A program made the translations under genes and the position numbers. Shown here piece after piece: positions 14,275 to 28,192 of a DNA stretch of 64,000 bases. Source of the stretch: an uncultured Actinomycetes bacterium. GTDB taxonomy: Bacteria > Actinomycetota > UBA4738 > HRBIN12. A model generated the notes under the pieces. The model was not told where the DNA came from, made no database searches, and saw only the letters and a list, made by a program, of their open reading frames with translations. Position 1 is the stretch's first letter. The number at the start of each line of letters is the position of its first letter. The stretch is taken from assembly GCA_964447335.1 (NCBI GenBank), contig CAYUSA010000009.1:3345-67344 (forward strand). The letters are read 5' to 3'.

Positions 14275-15138
14275 TTAGCCCGCGTCGCGAAAGCCGCGCA
14301 GGAACTCCCGGACGGTCGCCACCGCCTCTCGGCGCAGCCGGGCCTTCTCATCATCGTCGTCCGGGGCGGCGAGGAACGACGCGTACGCGGTGGGTCCATC
14401 CTGGCGGACGTCCTGAAAGCGCTCTTCGAGAAGGGCGAGGGCCTCGTCGATCTGAGGATGCTGCGCTACGGCGCTCGACCTGACTGCGCTTCCCGCGTCA
14501 CTGGGACCGCCCGCGTGGTTCAGGAGAGTGAAGACGAGGTCGTACGCATCCTTGTTCTCGTGCCGGTCCTGGAAGGCGAAGATCTTCAGCACCATGTACG
14601 GAAGAACATCCGCCACCCGCACCGTGACCTTGGACTGGCCTCCGCCATCGAGGCGCTCGCCCTCGATGTCGCGCTCGATGAAGTCGTCTCGCACCAGATG
14701 TGCGCCGCGGACGTTGAAGGCGCTGAGTTTCGATCCCGTGTACTCGTCCTTGGGGCGGAAGATGCGGCCGGGTTCCACGTCGTCCGTCTCGCAAAGGAAC
14801 TCGAGGAGGACGGTGACCCCGTCAACGTCGCGCGCCCACCGGAAGCTCGGCTCCTTCTGCTCGAAGTGGGCCTTCTCCAGATCGTTCTGCAGAGTGCGGT
14901 ACGTCTCCGGTGTCTCGTCGCCGAGGGCGAGGCCGATGACCAGGTCGACATCGGTCGTTCCGACGTGGGCTCGTGCACCTTCGGGGAGCTGCCCAACCAG
15001 GTATCTCGGGGCGAGGCCCCCGGCCAGATAGATGCGCTCGCGCCACGGACCGAGGTCGCCGAGCAACGTGAGCAGGACACGCTCGCAGCGCGCCGTCGTC
15101 TCCTCGTCGTAGTCGGTGTGGTGCTCGCGTGGGCTCAA
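14275..15138 (-). CDS. AbiEii-type nucleotidyltransferase (DUF1814-like) toxin
   Basis: ...LAGGLAPRYLVG...AHVGTTDVDLVIGLALGDE... is an NTase G-x(n)-DxD motif. The gene is translationally coupled by a 4-bp overlap to the upstream COG5340-like regulator. Confidence 0.65.
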   Translation of the reverse strand: MSPREHHTDYDEETTARCERVLLTLLGDLGPWRERIYLAGGLAPRYLVGQLPEGARAHVGTTDVDLVIGLALGDETPETYRTLQNDLEKAHFEQKEPSFRWARDVDGVTVLLEFLCETDDVEPGRIFRPKDEYTGSKLSAFNVRGAHLVRDDFIERDIEGERLDGGGQSKVTVRVADVLPYMVLKIFAFQDRHENKDAYDLVFTLLNHAGGPSDAGSAVRSSAVAQHPQIDEALALLEERFQDVRQDGPTAYASFLAAPDDDDEKARLRREAVATVREFLRGFRDAG

Positions 15139-16226
15139 AACCCGATCACCTCCCGGCGCAGATTCTCCGCCTGCTCACGCCCGCGGCGCGGGTCGCGGCG
15201 CAGATCGGCGTAGAGACGGAAGCGATTGGCCAGCCACAGACCCTTCTTCTTCTCGCGGTAGACGAGCGGCGTGTCGTCCTTTGCCTGCAGGAACACGACG
15301 TTCTGGCCATCAATGACGGGATCTGCCCCTGCACCGTTGTGCAGCTCCTCAGGTGCCGCTGTCGCTGTCACCCACACGTCGACGATAGGAACCGCCGTGA
15401 TGAAGGGTGCGACCAGGCTTGCGGCCGCCGCTCCGGTGAGCGCGTACTCGATGCCGCTGCGTCCGAGGTTGGTGCCCACCGCCTTGATGAGCCGCTGTGG
15501 AGTCTGTGCGAGGAGGTAGGCCGGCGTCCGCGTCGCGCGCTCAACGTTCTCCTCGGCCCACAGGTCGAGCAGGGCGGTCGGGTCGGTGACTCGCCGCACA
15601 CGCTTGGGACCGGTGCCCTGTGCCGCGACGATCCCTTCTGTCTCCAGGCGAGCGAGAACGCGGTGTGTCAGGGCGCCCGACACCTGCCCCTCTTGGGCGA
15701 GGTCCTTGACCTGCCATGCGCGGTCGGGGTGGAGCAAGAGTGCCTGAGCGACGACTCCGGCCTTGCCCTTCAGGCGTGTCGGCGGGGTGTCTCCGGCCCT
15801 CTGCTCCGGCCGTCGGTGGCCTTCCAGATGGAAGAGAAGGCCGGGCAGCTCGATATGGGCGTTCCCGAGACCATCGATGACGGCGATACCGTGCTCCTCC
15901 AGGATCTTCCGAGCTTCCGCGGTGGTCTGGCCTGCGATGAGCAGAACGGGCACATCCGGCCGTTCGTGGGCGTAGTGCACGAGCTGCCAGGCCGTGGCCG
16001 GGTTGGCGCGCCGTTTGAAGTCGACGGCGACCGGGACACGGTTGCCGGCGAAACGAAGGATGGTGTCGACCGCGCGATCCGCACCGCCAGGCTTGGCCAT
16101 CACGGCCAGGCCGGGGATCCCCCGTAGGATGCGGAGAGCCGCGGCCTCGAACGGGCCCTCCAGATTCACAAGTGCATGCTTATTCACAACGTCTATGAAT
16201 ATAGCCGATTCTGTGAAACGTGTCAT
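15135..16226 (-). CDS. COG5340/AbiEi-like winged-HTH regulator (Rv2827c-like architecture): N-domain, wHTH, C-domain
   Basis: The central wHTH reads AWQVKDLAQEGQVSGALTHRVLARLETEGIV. It is a paralogue of the 39448..40485 gene. The true start may instead be GTG at 16187, since a -35/-10 promoter appears to lie in the ORF's first 40 bp (see findings). Confidence 0.6.
   Translation of the reverse strand: MTRFTESAIFIDVVNKHALVNLEGPFEAAALRILRGIPGLAVMAKPGGADRAVDTILRFAGNRVPVAVDFKRRANPATAWQLVHYAHERPDVPVLLIAGQTTAEARKILEEHGIAVIDGLGNAHIELPGLLFHLEGHRRPEQRAGDTPPTRLKGKAGVVAQALLLHPDRAWQVKDLAQEGQVSGALTHRVLARLETEGIVAAQGTGPKRVRRVTDPTALLDLWAEENVERATRTPAYLLAQTPQRLIKAVGTNLGRSGIEYALTGAAAASLVAPFITAVPIVDVWVTATAAPEELHNGAGADPVIDGQNVVFLQAKDDTPLVYREKKKGLWLANRFRLYADLRRDPRRGREQAENLRREVIGF
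16183..16226 (-). promoter_or_regulatory. Putative autoregulated promoter: ATGACA-N17-TATATT with a TTCACA...TGTGAA inverted repeat
   Basis: Read on the minus strand this is ATGACA cgtttcacagaatcggc TATATT catagacgtt GTG. It has the same architecture as the promoters at 40486-40521 and 21415-21450. Confidence 0.35.
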
Positions 16227-16510
16227 CTTGGCCGCGTCGGGCAAGGGCCCGCGCAACCGCCGCACCCAGGACGGGCCCCGCGGAGAGCCCGGAGACTCGG
16301 TGCACGAAGACGAGCGATCGCAGTGAGGCGGGGCTACAGCGGCTTGTAGGGCGTGACTGCGACACGCGGTTTGGCTGACCTTGTGTCGCGGGGAGATCGG
16401 ACCGGGTGCTAGCGTGCCTGGATGAGGGTCGACGCGGTCGTGGAACCGGCCGGCGCGCGGCCGTGAACGCGGTGCCGACCCCGCCGCTGTGGGTGACGAG
16501 CGCGGGAACG

Positions 16511-18796: not shown

Positions 18797-18999
18797 CCCG
18801 GCCCTCGCGCCTGTGAATCCAGCTGACGCGCGGTCCGCACAACCGTGTGTCGTTCCGGTACCACGGGCTCGCCGACCGGCGATCGACCAGGGCCACCTGG
18901 GCGGTGGGCGGGCTGCTCGACGACGCGAGAGCGGCATTGCGATCGTCCCCAGCCGCGGCACGATCGACGCCTCTTCTTGCCCTTCAATACAATCGCGAC

Positions 19000-21360
19000 A
19001 TGGCGAACCTCGGTCCTCTGGAGGCTTCTACCTGTAAGGACTACGTCGTCCCACTGCTCAAGGCGGCAGGCTGGTCGGATGAGCAGATCGTCGAGCAGTT
19101 CCCCGTGACCGACGGCCGGATTATCCCCGGAGTGAAGGGGCACCGCAGAGAGAAGCCGCTACGCGCCGACTATCTCTTGGAGTATCGGCCGGGCCTTGCG
19201 GTCGCGGTCGTCGAAGCCAAGCGCGAGTACAAGCTTCCGACGGACGGCCTGCAGCAGGGAAAGCGCTACGCGCAGATGCTCGATCTGCCGCTCGCCTACT
19301 CGACGAACGGCAAGGGCATCGTCGAACACGACTTCGACACAGGTGCGGAAACGAACCCTGCCAAGTTCCCGACCCCACAAGAAGCCTGGGACAGATATCG
19401 CTCTTACCAGGGGATCACTCCAGCGGCTGAGGAGATCCTCACGCTGCCGTTCAACCGCGATCTTCGGCGTCCGGACGGTGCCGTCAAGGAGCCCCGCTAC
19501 TACCAGCGGGTCGCGATCGACCGTGTCCACGCATCGGTGGTGGCCGGGAACAAGCGCGCCTTGCTCACCATGGCGACCGGCACCGGCAAGACCTTCGTTG
19601 CCATGCAGATCGTATGGAAGCTTTGGCGACATGCCTGGCCCGAAGGCCGCAAGCCGCGCGTCCTCTATCTCGCGGACCGGAACATCCTCGTGGACCAACC
19701 GATCCAGCGTGAATTCCTGCCCGTCTTCGGCAACGCGATCTGGAAGATCAAGGGCGCGGCCAAGACGAGCCGCGAGATCTACTTCGCCCTGTATCAGTCG
19801 CTCGCGGATTCCGGCGACAGTCTCGGGATCTTCCGCGACTATCCGGCGGACTACTTCGATCTCGTCGTCGTCGATGAGTGTCACCGCGGCAGCGCCAAGG
19901 ACGACTCGAGCTGGCGGGCGATCCTGGATCACTTCGCTCCGGCCACGCAGCTGGGTCTCACAGCCACGCCCAAACGCGACGACAACGTCGATACGTACGC
20001 CTACTTCGGCGACCCGCTCTACACCTACTCACTTGCGCAGGGGATCGAAGACGGCTTCCTCGCTCCCTACCGGGTCCGGCGTGTCGTCCTTAGCGCGGAT
20101 GCGTACGGATGGAGTCCTGATGAAGGGCAGCTCGACCTCTTCGGCAAGGAGATCCCTGCCGGCCTCTACGAAACGCGAGACTTCGAACGCGTCGTGTCCC
20201 TGCTAACCCGCACTCAGGCGGCGGCGCATCACCTCACCGAGTACATGAAGCGAACCGACCGGATGGCGAAGACCGTTGTGTTCTGCGTCGATCAGGAACA
20301 CGCGGACCAGATGCGAGCGGCGCTTCACAAGGAGAATGAGGATCTTGCAAGGCAGCACCCGAACTACGTTGCCCGCATCGTCTCCGACGAAGGCGATGTC
20401 GGCGATGAGCTCCTCGGGTATTTCGCAGATCCGGAATCCGAAGAGCCGGTCATCGTCACGACGTCGCGTTTGCTCTCCACCGGTGTGGACATGCCCGCCG
20501 TCAAGAACATCGTGCTGTTCAAGCCGATCGGCTCGATCGTCGACTTCAAGCAGATCATCGGCCGCGGGACGCGCATCTACGAGGACGTCGACAAGCTCAG
20601 CTTCGAGATCATCGACTACTCGGGGGCAACGCGGCTGTTCGAAGACCCGGAGTTCGACGGTCCTGCCGAGCGCGTCGCGACCGAAGAGATCGATGAGAAC
20701 GGCGACGTTCAGGTAGAGCTGGTTGTAGCCGAACCCGAGCAGCCGTTCGGGGAACCCGGCGAACTGGATGAAGAAGAGGTCGCAGAAGAGGCCCGCGAGA
20801 AGCTCTACGTTGGCGACGCGCCCGTATACCTCGTGGCCGAGGGATACCGGATCCTCGACCCCGCCACCGGCAAGCTGAAGCTCGTCGAGTACGCCGACTA
20901 CGTGAAGGACCAAGTACGGATCCTGTTCGAGGGTCATGCCGAACTTCTGGGACGCTGGCGAACGCACGAGGGACGGGAAGAGATCAAGGAGCTGCTGGCC
21001 GAGCGAGGAGTGTTCCTTCAAGAGGTGGCGGAGCAATCGCACCTGGAGGAGCTCGACCCGCTCGATGTTCTTGCCCATCTGGCCTGGAACAGCCCGGCCG
21101 CGAGCCGGCGGGACCGCGCCCGCAGGGTGCGAAATGCGAACTTCCTCGAAACCTTCCAGCCCCAGGCTCGAGAAGTGCTGGAGCTGCTGCTTGAGAAGTA
21201 CGCGGAGTTCGGTGTCTCGCAGCTCGATGACCTGGAGGTCCTGATGGTCCCGCCGCTGAACGAGCTCGGAACCCCCGTTGAGATCGCCGCCCGGTTCGGC
21301 GGTCCGGCCAAGCTTCAGGAAGCCGTTGACCGCATGGAGCAGCTCCTCTACGCTGCGTGA
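19000..21360 (+). CDS. hsdR: Type I restriction enzyme R subunit
   Basis: PD-(D/E)xK nuclease motif (LRADYLLEYRPGLAVAVVEAKREYK), DEAD-box helicase motifs (TMATGTGKT, DECHR, LTATP) and a C-terminal HsdR domain. I used the internal start MANLG; a TACAAT -10 lies 6 nt upstream. Confidence 0.85.
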   Translation: MANLGPLEASTCKDYVVPLLKAAGWSDEQIVEQFPVTDGRIIPGVKGHRREKPLRADYLLEYRPGLAVAVVEAKREYKLPTDGLQQGKRYAQMLDLPLAYSTNGKGIVEHDFDTGAETNPAKFPTPQEAWDRYRSYQGITPAAEEILTLPFNRDLRRPDGAVKEPRYYQRVAIDRVHASVVAGNKRALLTMATGTGKTFVAMQIVWKLWRHAWPEGRKPRVLYLADRNILVDQPIQREFLPVFGNAIWKIKGAAKTSREIYFALYQSLADSGDSLGIFRDYPADYFDLVVVDECHRGSAKDDSSWRAILDHFAPATQLGLTATPKRDDNVDTYAYFGDPLYTYSLAQGIEDGFLAPYRVRRVVLSADAYGWSPDEGQLDLFGKEIPAGLYETRDFERVVSLLTRTQAAAHHLTEYMKRTDRMAKTVVFCVDQEHADQMRAALHKENEDLARQHPNYVARIVSDEGDVGDELLGYFADPESEEPVIVTTSRLLSTGVDMPAVKNIVLFKPIGSIVDFKQIIGRGTRIYEDVDKLSFEIIDYSGATRLFEDPEFDGPAERVATEEIDENGDVQVELVVAEPEQPFGEPGELDEEEVAEEAREKLYVGDAPVYLVAEGYRILDPATGKLKLVEYADYVKDQVRILFEGHAELLGRWRTHEGREEIKELLAERGVFLQEVAEQSHLEELDPLDVLAHLAWNSPAASRRDRARRVRNANFLETFQPQAREVLELLLEKYAEFGVSQLDDLEVLMVPPLNELGTPVEIAARFGGPAKLQEAVDRMEQLLYAA

Positions 21361-21382
21361 TATGCCTCAGGAGTGCACGAAC

Positions 21383-21450
21383 CTATATCGAATCTATAGT
21401 TCTGCGTAGCCACCTTGTCAGAGAACTAAAGATTCCGTATAGTTACACGC
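21383..21450 (+). promoter_or_regulatory. abiEi promoter/operator: CTATA-N7-TATAG palindrome, then TTGTCA-N17-TATAGT, then a leaderless ATG 7 nt downstream
   Basis: The 90-bp spacer between hsdR and abiEi is AT-rich (~45% GC versus ~70% background). -35 at 21415-21420, -10 at 21438-21443, ATG at 21451. Confidence 0.45.
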
Positions 21451-22050
21451 ATGGCGAACGTACAGGACAGGCGCGAGCTTCGCCGCAAGCTGTTCCAGAT
21501 CGCTGGATATCAGTCCGGTCTCTTCACGGCTGCCCAGGCACGGGACGCCGGCTACTCCTACGCGGCTCAGAAGTACCACGTCGACCACGGGAACTGGGTC
21601 CGGATCGACAGGGGGATCTTCCGCCTGCCCGAGTGGCCGCCCGAGCGGCACGAGGATCTCATCCGATGGGTGCTCTGGAGCGGCGGCAAAGGGGTCATCT
21701 CCCACGACACCGCGCTTTCGGTGTACGACCTCGGCGACGTCGATCCGGTCCGTACGCATCTCACGGTGCCCAAGGGGTTCCGCAAGTCAGCCCCCGGGGT
21801 GGCACTTCACCGCGCAACCCTGCCGAGCGAAGACGTTCAGGGCTTCGAGGGGGTTTCCATCACGACCCCGACGCGCAGCGTCCTCGACGTCGCGGCGGGC
21901 AACCTGGATGCGGACCAACTCGCCTCGGCGGTCGGCGATGCCATCGGGGCAGGGCTGGCGACGAAGAGAGAGCTCCTCCGACGGGCGGATTCCTTCGGCG
22001 CGCACGCGGCACTCCGCATCGAACGCTCACTCATGGACGCTGCTGCGTAG
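21451..22050 (+). CDS. abiEi: AbiEi antitoxin / transcriptional regulator (type IV TA / abortive infection)
   Basis: LFQIAGYQSGLFTAAQARDAGYSYAAQKYHVDHGNWVRIDRGIFRLPEWPP...LIRWVLWSGGKGVISHDTALSVYDL is the AbiEi_4 N-domain with the conserved C-domain. Confidence 0.8.
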   Translation: MANVQDRRELRRKLFQIAGYQSGLFTAAQARDAGYSYAAQKYHVDHGNWVRIDRGIFRLPEWPPERHEDLIRWVLWSGGKGVISHDTALSVYDLGDVDPVRTHLTVPKGFRKSAPGVALHRATLPSEDVQGFEGVSITTPTRSVLDVAAGNLDADQLASAVGDAIGAGLATKRELLRRADSFGAHAALRIERSLMDAAA

Positions 22051-22913
22051 TGGATCGCTACAAGACGCCCGCCGCCTTCCGCGCGGCTCTGGAGGACCGC
22101 CTGAAACAGCGCGCTCCGGACCAGTCCGCACTCGACCGATCCCGCAGGCAAGTCGTGTTCGACCGCATGCTTGCACGCCTGGAACGGGAGACGCCCGGCC
22201 AGTGGGTGGTCAAAGGGGGAACGGCTTTGGAGATCCGTCTGCCGGGCCGGGCGCGCCGCACCAAGGATCTTGACATGGCGACACGTCAAGACACGACGGA
22301 TGGGCTCGAGCTCCGGGGCGACCTCGTTCGGGCACTTGACCCCGACCCCTTCGAGGACTGGTTCGAGTTCAGGGTCGCCGATCCGCAGCAACTGGCCGAC
22401 GACGAGGCCGGTCGCCCCGGTTGGCGGTTCCCCGTGGAGTCGCGCCTAGCGGGTAGGACCTTTGCCAAGGTGAAGATGGACGTCGTTGCACGCATGGACG
22501 AGATCTCGGCAACCGAGAGGGTCACACTACCGGGGCTGTTGGACTTCGCCGGCCTCCCCCCGGTGGAAGTCGAGATCGTTGACAAGAAGCAGCACTTCGC
22601 CGAGAAGCTTCACGCGTACTCGAAGGACTATGGCGATCGCCCGAATACCCGCGTCCGTGACATCGTCGACATGGTGCTGCTGATCGAGGACGGCTTGCAG
22701 CCCGACGCCGATCTGTACGTCGCGGTCGACCATGTGTTCGCCGTGAGGGATACGCATCAGATCCCCGTTGATCTCCCGGACCCGCCACTGGTATGGGAGG
22801 AGCGCTACGAGGAACTCGCACAGGATCTCGATATCAGCCCGAAGACGCTTGATGTGGCCGTTCCGACGGTTCGGAGCTTCTGGGCGGCTGCGGTCGTAGC
22901 AGCGAAGGAGTAG
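22050..22913 (+). CDS. abiEii: AbiEii nucleotidyltransferase toxin (DUF1814)
   Basis: ...QWVVKGGTALEIRLPGRARRTKDLDMAT... is the NTase motif. The GTG start overlaps the abiEi stop (TAGTG). Confidence 0.8.
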   Translation: MDRYKTPAAFRAALEDRLKQRAPDQSALDRSRRQVVFDRMLARLERETPGQWVVKGGTALEIRLPGRARRTKDLDMATRQDTTDGLELRGDLVRALDPDPFEDWFEFRVADPQQLADDEAGRPGWRFPVESRLAGRTFAKVKMDVVARMDEISATERVTLPGLLDFAGLPPVEVEIVDKKQHFAEKLHAYSKDYGDRPNTRVRDIVDMVLLIEDGLQPDADLYVAVDHVFAVRDTHQIPVDLPDPPLVWEERYEELAQDLDISPKTLDVAVPTVRSFWAAAVVAAKE

Positions 22914-22916
22914 ACG

Positions 22917-24410
22917 ATGGCGAAGAAGAAGCAACCAGAGAAGCCGACGACACCGCAGGCGCGACTGGCGTCGGCGATCAAGCGCGCTCGCGACATCATG
23001 CGCAAGGACGCCGGTCTGAACGGGGACACCGACCGCATCCCGCAGCTCGCCTGGCTGCTCTTCCTGAAGGCCTTCGACGCGCAAGAGGCCCAGCGCGAGG
23101 TCACCGACCGCTCGTTCCGGCCTGCCATCGAGGCTCCCTTCCGTTGGCGCGACTGGGCGGCCAACGAGATCGAGGGCCGCACCGGCGAGGCGCTGCTCAC
23201 GTTTGTGAACGGCGAGCTGCTGCCGTACCTGCGAGGACTGACCGGCACCGAAGAGCGCGATCCGCGCGACGTCCTGGCCGCCGTCTTCAAAGAGACCTAC
23301 AACCGGATGCTCTCCGGCTACCTGCTGCGCGATGCCATCGATTGCGTGAACGAGGTCCACTTCGAGTCCTCTGACGACATCCACACGATGGCGTTCCTCT
23401 ACGAGACCATGCTGCGCGAGATGCGGGACGCCGCCGGCGACTCCGGCGAGTTCTACACCCCCAGGCCGGTCATCCGCTTCATCGTCCGGCAGGTCGATCC
23501 GAAGCTCGGCGAGATCATCCTCGACCCCGCTTGCGGGACCGGAGGCTTCCTCGTGGAATCGCTCGAGCACCTGCGACCGAAGGCCAAGAGCGTGGAGCAA
23601 TGGCAGGGGCTGCAGGACGACCTGCGTGGGATCGAGAAGAAGCCGCTGCCCTACCTGCTCGGCATGATGAACCTGCTCCTGCACGAGGTCGAGCAGCCCG
23701 CGATCGTCCGCGACAACGCCCTCGCACACCCGGTCACCGAGATCCGGGAAGCGAGCCGCGTGAACGTCGTCGTCACCAACCCGCCGTTCGGCGGTGAGGA
23801 GGAGAAGAGCATCCAGGCCAACTTCCCGGCCGGAACGCGGGCTGCGGAGACGGCGCTGCTCTTCCTGCAACTCGTCGAGCGCTCCCTTAAGTCCTCCGGC
23901 CGGTGCGGCATGGTCGTGCCCAACGGGCTCCTATTCGGCGACGGAGTCGCCGCGCGCATCAAGGAGCGGCTGATGAAGGAGTGCAACCTCCACACGATCG
24001 TCCGCTTGCCTGAGGGTGTCTTTGCCCCATACACGGACATCGCTTCGAATCTGCTCTTTTTCGAGAAGACCGGGCGCACCAAGGAAGTCTGGTTCTACGA
24101 GATCTTCCCGCCCGAGGGTAAGAAGAAGTACTCGAAGACCCGCCCGATGCCGTTCGAAGCTTTCGCCGAGTGCCAGGCATGGTGGGGTGGAGCAGCTCGA
24201 TCCGGACGAGCGGAGACTAGTCACGCGTGGCGGGTCCCTATCGCCGACCTTGAAGCTAGCGGTTACAACCTCGACCTCAAGAACCCGGATTCGTCCCTTG
24301 ACCTTTCGCACAAACCACCCGGAGAACTCCTCGCTGATCTCACCGAACTGGAACACGAGATCCAAGACCTTCTTACGCAACTCTCCTCTGCGATTCGGGG
24401 GGCAGAATGA
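22917..24410 (+). CDS. hsdM: Type I RM N6-adenine DNA methyltransferase subunit
   Basis: HsdM_N domain (...IPQLAWLLFLKAFD...), SAM motif LDPACGTGGFLV and NPPF catalytic motif (VVVTNPPFGG). An AAGGAG RBS lies upstream. Confidence 0.9.
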   Translation: MAKKKQPEKPTTPQARLASAIKRARDIMRKDAGLNGDTDRIPQLAWLLFLKAFDAQEAQREVTDRSFRPAIEAPFRWRDWAANEIEGRTGEALLTFVNGELLPYLRGLTGTEERDPRDVLAAVFKETYNRMLSGYLLRDAIDCVNEVHFESSDDIHTMAFLYETMLREMRDAAGDSGEFYTPRPVIRFIVRQVDPKLGEIILDPACGTGGFLVESLEHLRPKAKSVEQWQGLQDDLRGIEKKPLPYLLGMMNLLLHEVEQPAIVRDNALAHPVTEIREASRVNVVVTNPPFGGEEEKSIQANFPAGTRAAETALLFLQLVERSLKSSGRCGMVVPNGLLFGDGVAARIKERLMKECNLHTIVRLPEGVFAPYTDIASNLLFFEKTGRTKEVWFYEIFPPEGKKKYSKTRPMPFEAFAECQAWWGGAARSGRAETSHAWRVPIADLEASGYNLDLKNPDSSLDLSHKPPGELLADLTELEHEIQDLLTQLSSAIRGAE

Positions 24411-25609
24411 CTGTCAACGCCGTCTCGGTCGGAGAAGTTGCCACCCTTCACCGGCGGTGGATCAACCCGGATCCTATGACTGAATACATTCAGATTGGCG
24501 TCCGAGGCTTCGGCAGGGGCATCTTCCACTATCCACCGACGCTGGGGATGAACCTGGGACGACTTCGCTTCGCGACGGTCGAGCCGGGCGACCTAGTAGT
24601 GAGCAACATCAAGGCGTGGGAAGGTGCCATAGCTATGGCTGGCGACGGGGACGCGAACTGTATCGCATCCAACCGCTTCCTCACCTATCGAGTTTCAGAC
24701 GAGCGCGCGGACGCTCGTTATCTCCGGTACTTCTTCCTGAGCGAAGCTGGCCTCCGCCTCATTGGAAGGGCTTCACCGGGTTCCGCAGATAGAAATCGCA
24801 CCCTCGCAATCGATCGCTTTGAAGCGCTTGAGGTCCCGCTCGGACCGATTGACGAACAGCGCCGCATCGCCACCCTGCTTGACTCCATCCATTCGCGGAC
24901 TTCCACCGCGGACGCATTCGCAGTGAAGGCCGCCGTTGCCGCCGAGGCTCTGAAATGGGCCGTCACAAGGGATACGTTCGCCGACGTCGATACGAGTCTG
25001 AGCGAAGCCGTAGACATCAACCCGGAGTCGGTGAATCCGGAGAGAGACCTCGACGGGTCGATGTTCACCTACATCGACATCGGGTCGGTAGCCAATGGCA
25101 CGGGCGCGATTGCGACCCCGAAGGTCCTTCCGGTTGCCGAGGCTCCCTCCCGGGCGCGCAAGCGCGTGAGGACGGGTGACGTTCTGGTCGCGACCGTCCG
25201 CCCTAATCTCAAGGGAGTGGCGCTCGTATCGCAGGCACTCGATGGTGCTATCTGTTCGACGGGGTTCGCGGTCCTTAGGCCGAACTCTCGGCTGTCTCCC
25301 GAGTACCTGCTCCTTCAATGCCTGTCAGATGCCGTGACGGAACAGCTTGTCGAAGCCACCCGAGGTGGTCACTATCCTGCGGTCCCGGATAGGAAGCTTC
25401 GAGACGTGAAGATCGCGGTGCCGCCGGCGGACGAGCAGGTTGCCGTTGTTCAACGTCTGGGAGTGCTTCTTCATGAAGTCGGCGAACTCAAGCGGCGAAT
25501 CGGGGAGAGGAACGACCTTCTGCAAGCGCTCCCAAAGTCCATGCTTAACGAGTGCTTCAAAGGCGGAGCCTCCAAGGGACCCGCCGGCGAAGGAAGACCC
25601 CCCCGATGA
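24407..25609 (+). CDS. hsdS: Type I RM specificity subunit with two target-recognition domains
   Basis: Two TRDs separated by the conserved central and terminal coiled-coil repeats (LGPIDEQRRIATLLDSI... / ...VPPADEQVAVVQRLGVLLHEV). The start overlaps the hsdM stop (ATGA). The local GC is lower (~58%). Confidence 0.85.
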   Translation: MTVNAVSVGEVATLHRRWINPDPMTEYIQIGVRGFGRGIFHYPPTLGMNLGRLRFATVEPGDLVVSNIKAWEGAIAMAGDGDANCIASNRFLTYRVSDERADARYLRYFFLSEAGLRLIGRASPGSADRNRTLAIDRFEALEVPLGPIDEQRRIATLLDSIHSRTSTADAFAVKAAVAAEALKWAVTRDTFADVDTSLSEAVDINPESVNPERDLDGSMFTYIDIGSVANGTGAIATPKVLPVAEAPSRARKRVRTGDVLVATVRPNLKGVALVSQALDGAICSTGFAVLRPNSRLSPEYLLLQCLSDAVTEQLVEATRGGHYPAVPDRKLRDVKIAVPPADEQVAVVQRLGVLLHEVGELKRRIGERNDLLQALPKSMLNECFKGGASKGPAGEGRPPR

Positions 25610-26436
25610 TGGAACTGCGGGATGGATTGGGCGCGAGTGATGCCGAGAAGGCCATCCGCGATGTGATCGTTTGGTTCGAGAACCTGTCCGGAGGAGGTAG
25701 GGACGCCCTTGCGCTTCGCGACAGGTATCTGACTGAGGTCGAGCGTGCCGAGTCACAGCTGAGCAACCTGTATCCGGGGCTTGAGTGGATGGGCAGGCTC
25801 TACAGCGAGCGCTACTGGCGCATCCGCGAACTACACGCCGGCAGCCCGCGTCCCTTTCCGCTGATCCAGGACGAAGCTCGCGCGGTGGTCGGCTGGCTCA
25901 ACGACATGAAGCGTTGGCTGGAGGAACTCGCAGCCGAAGAGGCGCTGGTAGATCCGAAGGTTCCTCGCGTCGTGCTGGACACGAACGCCATCATGCACGC
26001 CAAGCCGCTCAGGGACAGCGACTGGCCCGGGGAACTGGGTCGGTCGTCCGTCCGGCTGATCCTGCCGTTGATCGTCATCACCGAACTCGACAACCTCAGG
26101 AACAGCGGGAACGACAAGAAAAGGGCGCGAGCCGCAACACGGCTATCAGAGATGCGTCGTCTGCTAGATGGGAAAGGGCGCGGACCCACGGACGTTCGGA
26201 CCAGAGTAACGCTCGAGGTTCTCGTCACACCCAGAGGGCACCTGCGCCACCAGAACAACGACGAGGAGATACTCGCGAACGTCGAGTCGCTCTCTCGGCG
26301 CCCCGGCGGCGCTCTTGTGCTCGCCACCGACGATTTCTCGATGCAGTTGAGGGCGGAGTCCCGAGGGATGGACGTAGTCGCGATCCCTGAGAATCTGGAG
26401 ATGCCTTTGCAGCCGCCACTCCCCGACGAGAGTTAG
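25606..26436 (+). CDS. Two-domain protein: an all-alpha N-terminal domain (~125 aa, with an Rx4H motif RIRELH) fused to a C-terminal PIN nuclease domain; translationally coupled to hsdS
   Basis: The PIN region reads PRVVLDTNAIMHAKPL...LILPLIVITELDNL...LVLATDDFSMQL...MDVVAIP, carrying the four conserved PIN acidic residues. The ATG at 25606 overlaps the hsdS TGA (ATGATGG). Confidence 0.65.
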   Translation: MMELRDGLGASDAEKAIRDVIVWFENLSGGGRDALALRDRYLTEVERAESQLSNLYPGLEWMGRLYSERYWRIRELHAGSPRPFPLIQDEARAVVGWLNDMKRWLEELAAEEALVDPKVPRVVLDTNAIMHAKPLRDSDWPGELGRSSVRLILPLIVITELDNLRNSGNDKKRARAATRLSEMRRLLDGKGRGPTDVRTRVTLEVLVTPRGHLRHQNNDEEILANVESLSRRPGGALVLATDDFSMQLRAESRGMDVVAIPENLEMPLQPPLPDES

Positions 26437-27137
26437 CGAACCTCGATCGATTCCCAGCTGGCTTCACCCACCACGACGTGTGAGAGAAAGCGCGTGCAGA
26501 CTGCTCGCGACGCTTCAAGCATATGTCGAGTCGCGTCCAAGTCGATATCGCTTGGCTTCGTATCGCCGGAGGGATGGTTGTGGGCGACAGCGAACGCACG
26601 CCCGTCATTGACCAGTACGGCGTTGAGGATCTCGCGCACCGGCACCATCGCCCGGTCGATCGACCCCTCGCTGACGCGCACGACCTTCTTCAGGCGGTTG
26701 GCGCCGTCGCAAACGAGCACGACGACGCGCTCGCGGCGCAGCCCTCTAAGCTCCTGACCAGCGATCCGGGCGACGTCCTCGGGCCCCCGCAGCTGCTCTC
26801 CTACTCCGCCGACGTGTTCGGAGCGCCGACCGAGCGTGAAAGCCGCGATGAGCCCTGCCGCCTTCGCTTCGCCGACACCCGGCCAGCGAGTCAGCTCCTC
26901 CAGCCTGGCCGACGCGATCGCCCGCAGCGAGCCGAACTCGGCAAGCAGCTCGCTTGCCAGATCCAGCGAGCTGACGCCCGGACGTCCGTTCCGGATAACC
27001 AGGGCCAACAGTTCCCGGTCGCTCAACGCCGCCGCGCCGACAGAGACAAGGCGCTCCCTCGGACGTTCCCCGCTGGGGATGCGTGCGATCGTCGTCGGTC
27101 CTGTCATAGGGCGAAGGGTAGTGTTTGGCTCTGACAT
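26433..27137 (-). CDS. RadC-like JAB/MPN-domain protein (UPF0758)
   Basis: ERPRERLVSVGAAALSDRELLALVIRNGRPGVSSLDLASELLAEFGSLRAI...WPGVGEAKAAGLIAAF is the HhH region. FAVAHNHPSGDTKPSDID is the JAMM H-x-H-x(n)-S-x2-D metalloprotease motif. An alternative start is at 27107. Confidence 0.75.
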   Translation of the reverse strand: MSEPNTTLRPMTGPTTIARIPSGERPRERLVSVGAAALSDRELLALVIRNGRPGVSSLDLASELLAEFGSLRAIASARLEELTRWPGVGEAKAAGLIAAFTLGRRSEHVGGVGEQLRGPEDVARIAGQELRGLRRERVVVLVCDGANRLKKVVRVSEGSIDRAMVPVREILNAVLVNDGRAFAVAHNHPSGDTKPSDIDLDATRHMLEASRAVCTRFLSHVVVGEASWESIEVR

Positions 27138-27178
27138 CCGAGTTCGGACCCGAGGAGACGGAGACCATCGGCGACAAC

Positions 27179-28192
27179 ATGAACGGACTGAGTTGGGAGG
27201 AGCTCGACACGGTCTACCTCCCGGAGAGAGACCGGTCATTCACCGAGGACCGCTGCTTCCTGTGCGGGACGCCGCTCACCAAGAAGAACCGCGCCGACGA
27301 GCATGTCTTCCCGAAATGGCTTCAGCATCGGTTCGACCTCTGGAACCAACGGATGGTTCTCCTCAATCGCACGGACATCCCATATCGGAGTGTCAAGATT
27401 CCGTGCTGCTCAGCCTGCAACCACGGACCCTTGGCGGAACTCGAAGCCCGGGTGGCGGAAGCCCATGCGGACGGTTTTGAAGGTTTCGCCCAGCTGGACA
27501 GGCGTGACCTCTTCCTGTGGCTGGCGAAGATCTATTACGGCCTGATGTTCCGAGAGGTGCTGCTCCCGGCCGACAGAACCGATCCAGACTCAGAGCCGAT
27601 CCTCCCCCCGGATATCTTCGAGGAGCTGAGGATGCACCATTTGCTCTTGCAAGCGATCCGCGGCGCCGTGCGGTGGCGCGGGTTCCCTGCCAGCATCTTC
27701 CTGTTCCGATGCCAGGTGCACCCCGATCCGCGATTCGGCTTTGACTATCGTGATTCGTTCTTGGATCCTTTTCTCGCCCTTCGCCTCGGTCAAGTCGCAG
27801 TACTCGCGAATCTTCAGGACTGGGGAGCGATGGAGGACCAAGCGATTGCGGACTTCGAGACGGCGAAGACTCTCGAGCTTCACCCTGTCCAGTTCATCCA
27901 GCTCGCCGCGCAGGCGACGTACATCAGCACATTGTTCAACCGAACGCCAAAACACGTGGTCGTCCTGGACCGGGATGTCCTCGACGTCATCACGCTTCCC
28001 CTTGCAGGCTTCAGTGGCAAGCCCTTGTTCGATTCCTTCGACCCCGCCGAATACGCGGAGTTCTTGGCGGCAGCAATGTTCGTGGGGGTCGACGAGGTGA
28101 TGGGCGGCGACGGAATCAGGACTTACCTTCAGGACGAGCGACGCGCCCCTTTGTTCATCCCATGGGATCCGCAGGGGAACGTCACGCCATGA
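27179..28192 (+). CDS. HNH-endonuclease-domain protein with a ~230-aa C-terminal extension of unknown function
   Basis: CFLCGTPLTKKNRADEHVFPKWLQHRF...IPCCSACNHG is an HNH (McrA-like) C-x2-C...H...N...C-x2-C-N-H signature. GC is noticeably lower (~58-60%). It is transcribed divergently from the RadC-like gene. Confidence 0.6.
   Translation: MNGLSWEELDTVYLPERDRSFTEDRCFLCGTPLTKKNRADEHVFPKWLQHRFDLWNQRMVLLNRTDIPYRSVKIPCCSACNHGPLAELEARVAEAHADGFEGFAQLDRRDLFLWLAKIYYGLMFREVLLPADRTDPDSEPILPPDIFEELRMHHLLLQAIRGAVRWRGFPASIFLFRCQVHPDPRFGFDYRDSFLDPFLALRLGQVAVLANLQDWGAMEDQAIADFETAKTLELHPVQFIQLAAQATYISTLFNRTPKHVVVLDRDVLDVITLPLAGFSGKPLFDSFDPAEYAEFLAAAMFVGVDEVMGGDGIRTYLQDERRAPLFIPWDPQGNVTP

Follow-up and report, generated by a model that had tools for sequence, protein, structure and literature searches.

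A conserved AbiE toxin-antitoxin pair nested between hsdR and hsdM, with a predicted promoter that may also drive the modification genes of a type I restriction-modification cassette

AbiE biology and the autoregulation of AbiEi are already established (PMC3985639, PMC7319586), as are extra co-expressed genes in restriction-modification (RM) loci and the PrrC paradigm (PMC3632139, PMC3874165). Here, we describe a locus that joins such parts. In a 64-kb window of DNA from an uncultured Actinomycetes bacterium (assembly GCA_964447335.1, contig CAYUSA010000009.1, positions 3,345 to 67,344 of the forward strand), which was analyzed over its whole length and to whose positions all coordinates below refer, the toxin-antitoxin (TA) genes abiEi and abiEii lie between hsdR and hsdM of a type I RM cassette. 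We consider it probable that a leaderless abiE promoter drives abiEi, abiEii, hsdM, hsdS, and a PIN-domain gene under AbiEi feedback, in a conserved, horizontally spread module of the form hsdR/abiE-hsdMS(-PIN)/radC. The parts are ordinary; what is notable is the conservation of the arrangement and its directly testable regulatory wiring.

In Streptococcus agalactiae AbiE, the antitoxin gene comes first and the toxin gene overlaps it (PMC3985639, PMC7319586). The promoter PabiE carries two 23-bp repeats with 4 mismatches, set 3 bp apart, and the bicistronic message starts 26 nt upstream of the ATG and has a ribosome-binding site (PMC3985639). The locus described here shares this gene order, the two-domain winged-helix AbiEi fold (PDB entry 6Y8Q is the best match), a DUF1814 toxin with the same catalytic motifs, and two 23-bp inverted repeats that match at 19/23 positions and flank or cover the promoter. 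It differs from the streptococcal system in that protein identity is ~15%, the gap between the repeats is 17-18 bp instead of 3 bp, the transcript is predicted to be leaderless, and the operon runs on into hsdM, hsdS, and the PIN gene. The Mycobacterium tuberculosis pair Rv2827c-Rv2826c (MenA3-MenT3; PMC7319586) likewise comes from an actinobacterial host and shares the repressor fold (PDB entry 1ZEL), and its pairs of 23-bp inverted repeats have a wider gap of 13 bp and straddle a predicted SigA site (PMC7319586). Unlike the AbiEi described here, Rv2827c is ~295 aa long, acts at four repeats, binds with negative co-operativity, and does not lie within a restriction system.

EcoprrI-PrrC provides the precedent for a suicide or dormancy effector that lies within a type I operon (in that case, type IC hsd genes) and is expressed together with it (PMC3874165, PMC3632139). 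PrrC is an ABC-ATPase/HEPN anticodon nuclease that has no cognate antitoxin and is kept inactive by the restriction complex, whereas the effector embedded here, a DUF1814 nucleotidyltransferase, comes with an antitoxin-repressor of its own, and the pair heads the modification operon, whose promoter it would supply; the locus is thus not a PrrC-type guard. By analogy with MenT toxins, tRNA would be the expected target of AbiEii. Nested defence or toxin genes that appear to be co-expressed are reported as frequent in type I loci in the available text of the embedding literature (bioRxiv 10.1101/2024.01.29.577857; Makarova et al. 2013, PMC3632139). The present clade fits this guilt-by-embedding pattern (type I RM, BREX, and DISARM), in that the equivalent slot of some relatives holds HEPN, Zeta-toxin, or GmrSD genes. 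The searchable text of the embedding papers does not name AbiE in type I systems, nor does it describe a dependence of modification genes on an embedded autoregulated promoter. The literature that we found on AbiE together with type I RM or hsd genes likewise contains general statements on embedding, with no mention of a type I clade in which AbiE is a regular component and no description of methylase and specificity expression tied to an AbiEi-controlled promoter.

Dedicated regulators are familiar from type II systems, where C proteins are small autoregulators encoded in the RM cluster that bind inverted repeats at their own promoter and thereby time or set RM expression. They are dimers with an Xre-type helix-turn-helix, and most of them first activate the restriction gene and later repress it, whereas AbiEi, a two-domain winged-helix antitoxin, would target the methylase and specificity genes. 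The cassette encodes no regulator other than this 199-aa winged-helix protein, and no AbiEi-type box lies upstream of hsdR, so the locus does not belong to the C-protein class. For type I systems, control has been reviewed as acting only via proteolysis and assembly, with ClpXP-dependent restriction alleviation and no dedicated transcriptional regulator (PMC3874165).

The promoter and inverted repeats upstream of abiEi

The cassette comprises the following features.

18988..18993, + strand: -10 hexamer TACAAT of the predicted hsdR promoter, 6 nt before the hsdR ATG (consensus scan; equivalents in relatives)
19000..21360, + strand: hsdR, restriction subunit of the EcoAI/FtnUII family (type IB), 786 aa (NCBIfam NF046051, Pfam ResIII and EcoEI_R_C)
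21381..21403, + strand: inverted repeat 1 (IR1), distal 23-bp arm of the predicted AbiEi operator, ACCTATATCGAATCTATAGTTCT, which encloses CTATA-N7-TATAG
21415..21420, + strand: -35-like hexamer TTGTCA, between IR1 and IR2 and not conserved in relatives
21422..21444, + strand: inverted repeat 2 (IR2), proximal 23-bp arm of the predicted operator, AGAACTAAAGATTCCGTATAGTT, which overlies the promoter spacer and the -10
21438..21443, + strand: abiE -10 hexamer TATAGT, 7 nt before the abiEi ATG, without a Shine-Dalgarno sequence (predicted leaderless)
21451..22050, + strand: abiEi, antitoxin and predicted autorepressor, 199 aa (Pfam AbiEi_4, PADLOC AbiEi, AlphaFold2 [AF2] fold match)
22050..22913, + strand: abiEii, DUF1814 nucleotidyltransferase toxin, 287 aa, GTG start (Pfam AbiEii, PADLOC)
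22905..22910, + strand: AAGGAG, Shine-Dalgarno sequence of hsdM within the final abiEii codons (sequence; SD-like motif in relatives)
22917..24410, + strand: hsdM, 497 aa (Pfam N6_Mtase at 2e-62 and HsdM_N; PADLOC MTase_I)
24407..25609, + strand: hsdS, 400 aa (Pfam Methylase_S; PADLOC Specificity_I at 4e-70)
25606..26436, + strand: PIN_4-domain gene, 276 aa, last of the coupled string, which has an ATGA overlap with hsdS (locus-specific cargo)
26433..27107, - strand: radC-like JAB gene, convergent (Pfam RadC and UPF0758_N; NCBIfam), the conserved right-hand neighbor

The hsdR stop codon (TGA, 21358-21360) is followed by a spacer of 90 nt (21361-21450) with 44.4% GC, relative to a window average of 69%, in close agreement with the AT-rich 90-bp spacer of 45% GC on which the original prediction was built. 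The predicted promoter was also found where that prediction had placed it: TTGTCA (21415-21420), 17 nt, TATAGT (21438-21443), the 7 nt TACACGC, and the abiEi ATG at 21451. In the consensus scan, this promoter matched the consensus at 10/12 positions and was one of only two matches in 10 kb (shuffle mean, 1.1). Given that the -10 sits 7 nt before the ATG with no Shine-Dalgarno sequence in between, the start site would lie at or next to the start codon, and we infer that the message is leaderless and begins at the abiEi ATG. The second match was TACAAT (18988-18993), which lies 6 nt before the hsdR ATG at position 19000 (the gene call places the start there and not further upstream), so hsdR is probably also leaderless. 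In its relatives, TACGAT or TACGGT precedes the hsdR start codon by 6-8 nt. With regard to separate Pres and Pmod promoters, leaderless -10 elements are therefore seen, from sequence alone, both before hsdR and before abiEi. Several of the hsdR relatives also have a GGTACnGTACC palindrome upstream of the start codon.

The palindrome CTATA-N7-TATAG, which had been put forward as the AbiEi binding site, is present at 21383-21399. It proved to be the internal dyad of IR1, and the larger unit is the pair of 23-bp inverted repeats, IR1 and IR2, which match at 19/23 positions and are separated by 18 bp. A repeat finder reported inverted arms of 30 nt (21374-21403 and 21422-21451) that are 77% complementary with 18 nt between them. 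When the spacer was shuffled, none of 2000 shuffles attained 19/23 matches (the best reached 17), and a search for AbiEi-type boxes upstream of hsdR and elsewhere in the 64-kb window returned only IR1 and IR2. IR2 overlies the promoter spacer and the -10, and the -35 falls in the gap between the arms, so the locus has the inverted repeats of ~23 bp overlapping a promoter that are expected of AbiE systems. Since the centers of the arms are ~41 bp, or about four helical turns, apart, IR1 and IR2 would face the same side of the DNA. Because their size, their 19/23 match, and their overlap with the promoter mirror published AbiEi operators (PMC3985639, PMC7319586), we take IR1 and IR2 to be the probable AbiEi operator.

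We then compared this region among relatives. When species-representative genomes were scanned with an AbiEi profile, 80 loci were identified, the window's proteins were compared with them by tblastn, and the upstream regions were aligned on the abiEi start codon; 55 of the 80 had a recognizable proximal box. In 52 of these 55 loci, a TANNNT hexamer (TATAGT or TAGGAT) precedes the abiEi start codon by 6-8 nt, which extends the proposal of a leaderless promoter to the family. In 46/55 loci, the two 23-nt arms are both present at a constant spacing of 17-18 bp and share the consensus WMCTMNAYSRAAACTWKAGTTY, which likewise favors the idea of an inverted-repeat operator. Stand-alone AbiE relatives retain the same repeats and the same -10; therefore, operator and promoter belong to abiE and travel with it. 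On the opposite strand, the reverse complement of IR1 (21381-21403, - strand) contains a -10-like hexamer, TATAGG or TAGGTT, that is directed toward the hsdR 3' end; conceivably, the same operator also governs a divergent antisense promoter.

The family assignments of the two abiE genes, and their placement between hsdR and hsdM, were confirmed by Pfam, PADLOC, and NCBIfam. AbiEi matched Pfam AbiEi_4 (1.6e-7; 31.8 bits against a cut-off of 25) and PADLOC AbiEi (1e-68, residues 9-184). Its AF2 model has a mean predicted local distance difference test score of 89.6, and its only fold matches below 1e-3 in the PDB were 6Y8Q (E value of 1.9e-8, template modeling score of 0.65, 201 columns, full length) and 1ZEL, which is Rv2827c (E value of 1.8e-5). 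AbiEii matched its Pfam family at 1.2e-26 (94.5 bits against a cut-off of 22.5) and PADLOC at 7e-79. Among 102 AbiEii orthologues, the motifs KGG56-57, T71xD73xD75, D144, and AEK186...R197xNxRxxD204LxD207 are at least 95% conserved (the C-terminal motif reads AEKxHA...RxNRxxDLxD), and the conserved residues correspond to those mutated in PMC3985639. Since these orthologues are otherwise only 35-62% identical, the toxin is under purifying selection. The abiEi stop codon (TAG) and the abiEii GTG share base 22050, a 1-nt overlap, and the antitoxin comes first in all related loci. The pair thus combines the AbiEi family and fold, a DUF1814 AbiEii with intact catalytic motifs, and the gene order of the AbiE family. 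As for the RM genes, HsdR scored 933.9 bits against the NF046051 EcoAI/FtnUII equivalog (cut-off, 550) and has the domains ResIII, Helicase_C, and EcoEI_R_C; with helicase motifs in this equivalog and HsdM and HsdS encoded together, the system is of the EcoAI type (type IB).

The cassette in related loci and its junction with hsdM

The 80 loci found through AbiEi comprise 47 with the order hsdR-abiEi-abiEii-hsdM, 5 with abiE-hsdM but no adjoining hsdR, and 15 stand-alone abiE loci. Of the other 13, six carry hsdR upstream, but hsdM is either missing or would lie past the end of the contig; another six are on contigs that are too short for classification; and in one (L037), abiEi and hsdM are present but abiEii is not. 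In most full cassettes, hsdS and then a convergent radC come next. The majority of the loci are from Actinomycetota (Solirubrobacterales, Acidimicrobiia, Thermoleophilia, Mycobacteriales, and Nocardioides currus), and a few are from Chloroflexia, Acidobacteriota, and one deltaproteobacterial bin. We also scanned with HsdM as the anchor, which made the search blind to AbiE. In the 73 loci with enough upstream DNA, the gene directly upstream of hsdM was abiEii in 64, hsdR in 3, and something else in 6. The arrangement had been described as unusual; within this clade, with AbiE in the slot at 64 of the 73 loci found through HsdM, it is the usual state.

Where hsdR is present among these six, in loci whose HsdM is 60-63% identical, the slot between hsdR and hsdM is instead filled by HEPN_RiboL-PSP (L151, 4332-4994), a Zeta toxin with a 73-aa open reading frame (ORF) (L164, 4194-5002), or GmrSD_N (L162, 1469-3160). 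Distance matrices of AbiEi and AbiEii correlated with those of HsdR and HsdM (Mantel r of 0.80-0.89; 0/1000 permutations as high) at a mean pairwise AbiEii identity of 49% over 54 loci. As the correlation between HsdR and HsdM themselves was comparable (r of 0.88), the module is inherited as a unit. More distant AbiE homologues (~40% identity) on plasmids of Thermus, Simkania, and Deinococcus are stand-alone, so the embedded state is specific to this clade. On sequence evidence, the cassette is a conserved composite defence module whose layout recurs in more than 100 related loci, mainly in Actinomycetota and in a few other phyla.

Some of the variants stand out. In a subclade made up of L033, L037, L044, and L069, abiE-hsdM-hsdS lacks an adjoining hsdR. 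L033 retains remnant hsdR codons, which suggests a secondary loss of hsdR; L044 has dnaG and rpoD upstream of abiE-hsdMS; and in L069, the abiEi start codon was not found. The AbiE-less locus L116 (4860-5010) keeps ...GAGAGGAGTAGGCGGTG before hsdM. Because this is the same as the junction between the abiEii 3' end and the hsdM start elsewhere, a secondary deletion of AbiE is suggested for L116.

In the window, the abiEii end (22913) and the hsdM start (22917) bear out the predicted 3-bp gap, and hsdM and hsdS, like the hsdS stop and the PIN gene, are joined by 4-nt ATGA overlaps. We assembled the abiEii-hsdM junctions of 114 loci. The distance from the abiEii stop to the hsdM start ranges from -4 to +12 nt in 105 of them, and 103 have an SD-like motif (usually GAGGAG) 4-16 nt before the hsdM start codon; in the loci inspected individually, this motif is inside the last abiEii codons. 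A total of 47 TANNNT hexamers were found within 400 nt upstream of hsdM over the 114 loci, with no positional peak. On the + strand of the window, there is no TANNNT between the abiE -10 (21438) and 24485, and no + strand terminator is predicted between 18 and 28 kb. An internal hsdM promoter of the sigma-A type was thus ruled out by the lack of TANNNT in the window and of a family-wide peak. A separate strong hsdM promoter inside abiEii was what the original prediction had named as evidence against it, and none was found for promoters of this type. Taken together, the tight gaps, the SD-like motifs, and the lack of an internal TANNNT or terminator give comparative support to the proposed co-transcription of abiE, hsdM, and hsdS.

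Proposed wiring and alternative readings

In the mechanism that we propose, hsdR would be transcribed from its own leaderless promoter, and abiEi, abiEii, hsdM, hsdS, and the PIN gene would form one translationally coupled message from the abiE promoter, which would take the place of the classical type I Pmod. The junctions through which coupling could act are the 1-nt overlap, the 3-nt gap with its Shine-Dalgarno sequence in abiEii, and the two 4-nt overlaps. Winged-helix AbiEi most likely binds both 23-bp repeats, one over the -10 and the other about four turns upstream. By analogy with characterized AbiEi proteins, this binding would silence its own promoter, so that the levels of toxin, methylase, and specificity subunit would be set together. 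The abiE promoter, and not hsdR read-through, probably supplies most of the hsdMS mRNA. The payoff may be stabilization of the cassette, abortive defence as a second line, or a burst that puts methylation first when the cassette reaches a new host. In a more ambitious version, AbiEi controls the modification arm such that, in a naive cell, the still unrepressed leaderless promoter yields a burst of methylase and specificity subunit along with toxin and antitoxin before AbiEi feedback sets in, AbiEii serves as a PrrC-like back-up when a phage shuts down or bypasses the operon, and the five genes co-evolve as a single restrict-or-abort unit instead of two adjacent systems; as a whole, we regard this version as doubtful.

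Several observations weigh against the proposed wiring. A -35 with at least 5/6 matches occurs in only 4/55 loci, and in the subclade of L033, L037, and L044, the -10 position reads TTGAGG and not TANNNT. Weak conservation of the -35 is usual for actinobacterial promoters. The consensus promoter of the original prediction accordingly holds for this locus and for the conserved -10, and its near-consensus -35 is specific to this locus. AbiEi is only ~15% identical to characterized repressors, and sequence searches of solved structures gave no relevant match for AbiEi, nor did they for AbiEii; the binding of AbiEi to the repeats thus rests on analogy. An analysis of co-variation between AbiEi residues and operator bases over 67 loci gave no enrichment in the recognition helix and was dominated by phylogeny and high-entropy columns. 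Finally, there is no terminator between hsdR and abiEi, and in the AbiE-less relatives L116, L143, and L144, hsdM lies ~20-90 nt behind hsdR with no obvious promoter, so read-through from hsdR may contribute to, or even dominate, hsdMS expression.

This last possibility, taken to its conclusion, makes the cassette a single long operon from the hsdR promoter, in which hsdM and hsdS are expressed mainly by read-through, the abiE promoter only tops up AbiE, and AbiEi has little effect on the methylase. Besides the missing terminator and the AbiE-less relatives, it can draw on the hsdR stop codon, which abuts IR1 in most loci, and on the Shine-Dalgarno sequence of hsdM, which permits translation from any transcript. 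We nonetheless consider it quite unlikely, given that a conserved leaderless abiE promoter heads a gap-free gene string, so that abiE transcripts must include hsdM. In addition, L033 carries abiE-hsdMS behind a divergent MMPL transporter gene with only a few remnant hsdR codons; since the upstream gene is divergent, no hsdR promoter can feed hsdMS there. AbiEi bound to IR1 and IR2 would also stand in the path of the polymerase. Without a Shine-Dalgarno sequence, abiEi would be translated well only from a leaderless message, and abiEii translation would depend on coupling to abiEi. Because hsdM has its own Shine-Dalgarno sequence, any hsdR read-through would favor Hsd over AbiE.

Alternatively, the repeats could work in RNA, as a hairpin located where the hsdR message ends (as a terminator, a stabilizer, or an occluder of the abiEi start) and not as a protein operator. 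A 100-nt fold of the region is moderately stable (-25.4 kcal/mol, z = -2.2); in it, the two arms pair with each other, and the stem has the abiEi AUG at its base. What is conserved, however, is the consensus and not the pairing: the 46 loci share WMCTMNAYSRAAACTWKAGTTY, and arms from the same locus match at 14.7/23 positions versus 13.9/23 for arms from different loci (a value reached by 3 of 10000 permutations). This pattern fits a protein operator better than a selected RNA stem. Moreover, L025, L031, and L061 have IR2 only, stand-alone abiE loci without an upstream hsdR retain both arms, no T-run follows the hairpin, the spacer has no Rfam match, and IR1 and IR2 would remain untranscribed from a leaderless start. 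We therefore judge this reading very improbable.

A different objection treats AbiE as a selfish passenger that occupies a permissive slot between hsdR and hsdM and has no functional tie to the restriction system, with a tight junction that reflects genome compaction. The same slot holds HEPN_RiboL-PSP, Zeta-toxin, or GmrSD genes at 60-63% HsdM identity, the distant plasmid homologues are stand-alone, 15 of the 80 close AbiEi relatives have no RM neighbors, and embedding is described as frequent in type I systems generally in the available text of one source (bioRxiv 10.1101/2024.01.29.577857). Against this stand the co-diversification of AbiE with Hsd, which is as strong as that of HsdR with HsdM down to a mean AbiEii identity of 49%, the retention of AbiE in 64/73 loci, and the ribosome-binding site of hsdM within the abiEii coding sequence in 103/114 loci. 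These observations make the passenger explanation unlikely. Whatever the selective reason for the arrangement, the position of this ribosome-binding site within abiEii makes hsdM expression physically dependent on the abiE unit.

Flanking features and implications

The cassette lies in an island of lower GC content (~18.9 to 28.3 kb; 63% versus 69% GC), at whose edges neither flanking direct repeats nor a tRNA gene was found to mark the boundary of a mobile element. The PIN gene, which encodes an N-terminal extension of ~130 aa, overlaps hsdS on one side and radC on the other, by 4 nt each. It is missing from ~160 related loci, except for one 35%-identical copy in L093. The radC-like JAB gene follows hsdS in convergent orientation in most cassettes (L001-L164) and seems either to mark where the module ends on the right or to be its sixth member. 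On the margin of the island, a 355-aa ORF with Cys-rich motifs (27125-28192) had no Pfam, PADLOC, or NCBIfam match and no counterpart in related loci. A second regulator and nucleotidyltransferase pair lies 3 kb upstream of hsdR (14275-16265, - strand). It consists of a 376-aa protein with a weak MarR-type winged-helix match (PADLOC PDC-M05A, 4e-4) and a 287-aa partner with a weak NTP_transf_8 match, the two genes overlap by 4 nt, and they may represent another AbiE-like or PDC-M05-like module.

For the family as a whole, these results have a practical consequence: annotation and defence-finder pipelines should treat hsdR-abiEi-abiEii-hsdM-hsdS(-radC) as a single unit. Methylase and specificity genes that lie behind a TA autorepressor, without a promoter of their own, would be a simple, widespread, and testable case of such wiring. 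If AbiEi does set HsdM and HsdS levels, this would connect TA regulation with epigenetic self-protection and with the establishment of RM systems after horizontal transfer, and a second suicide module, mechanistically distinct from PrrC, would be wired into a type I system.

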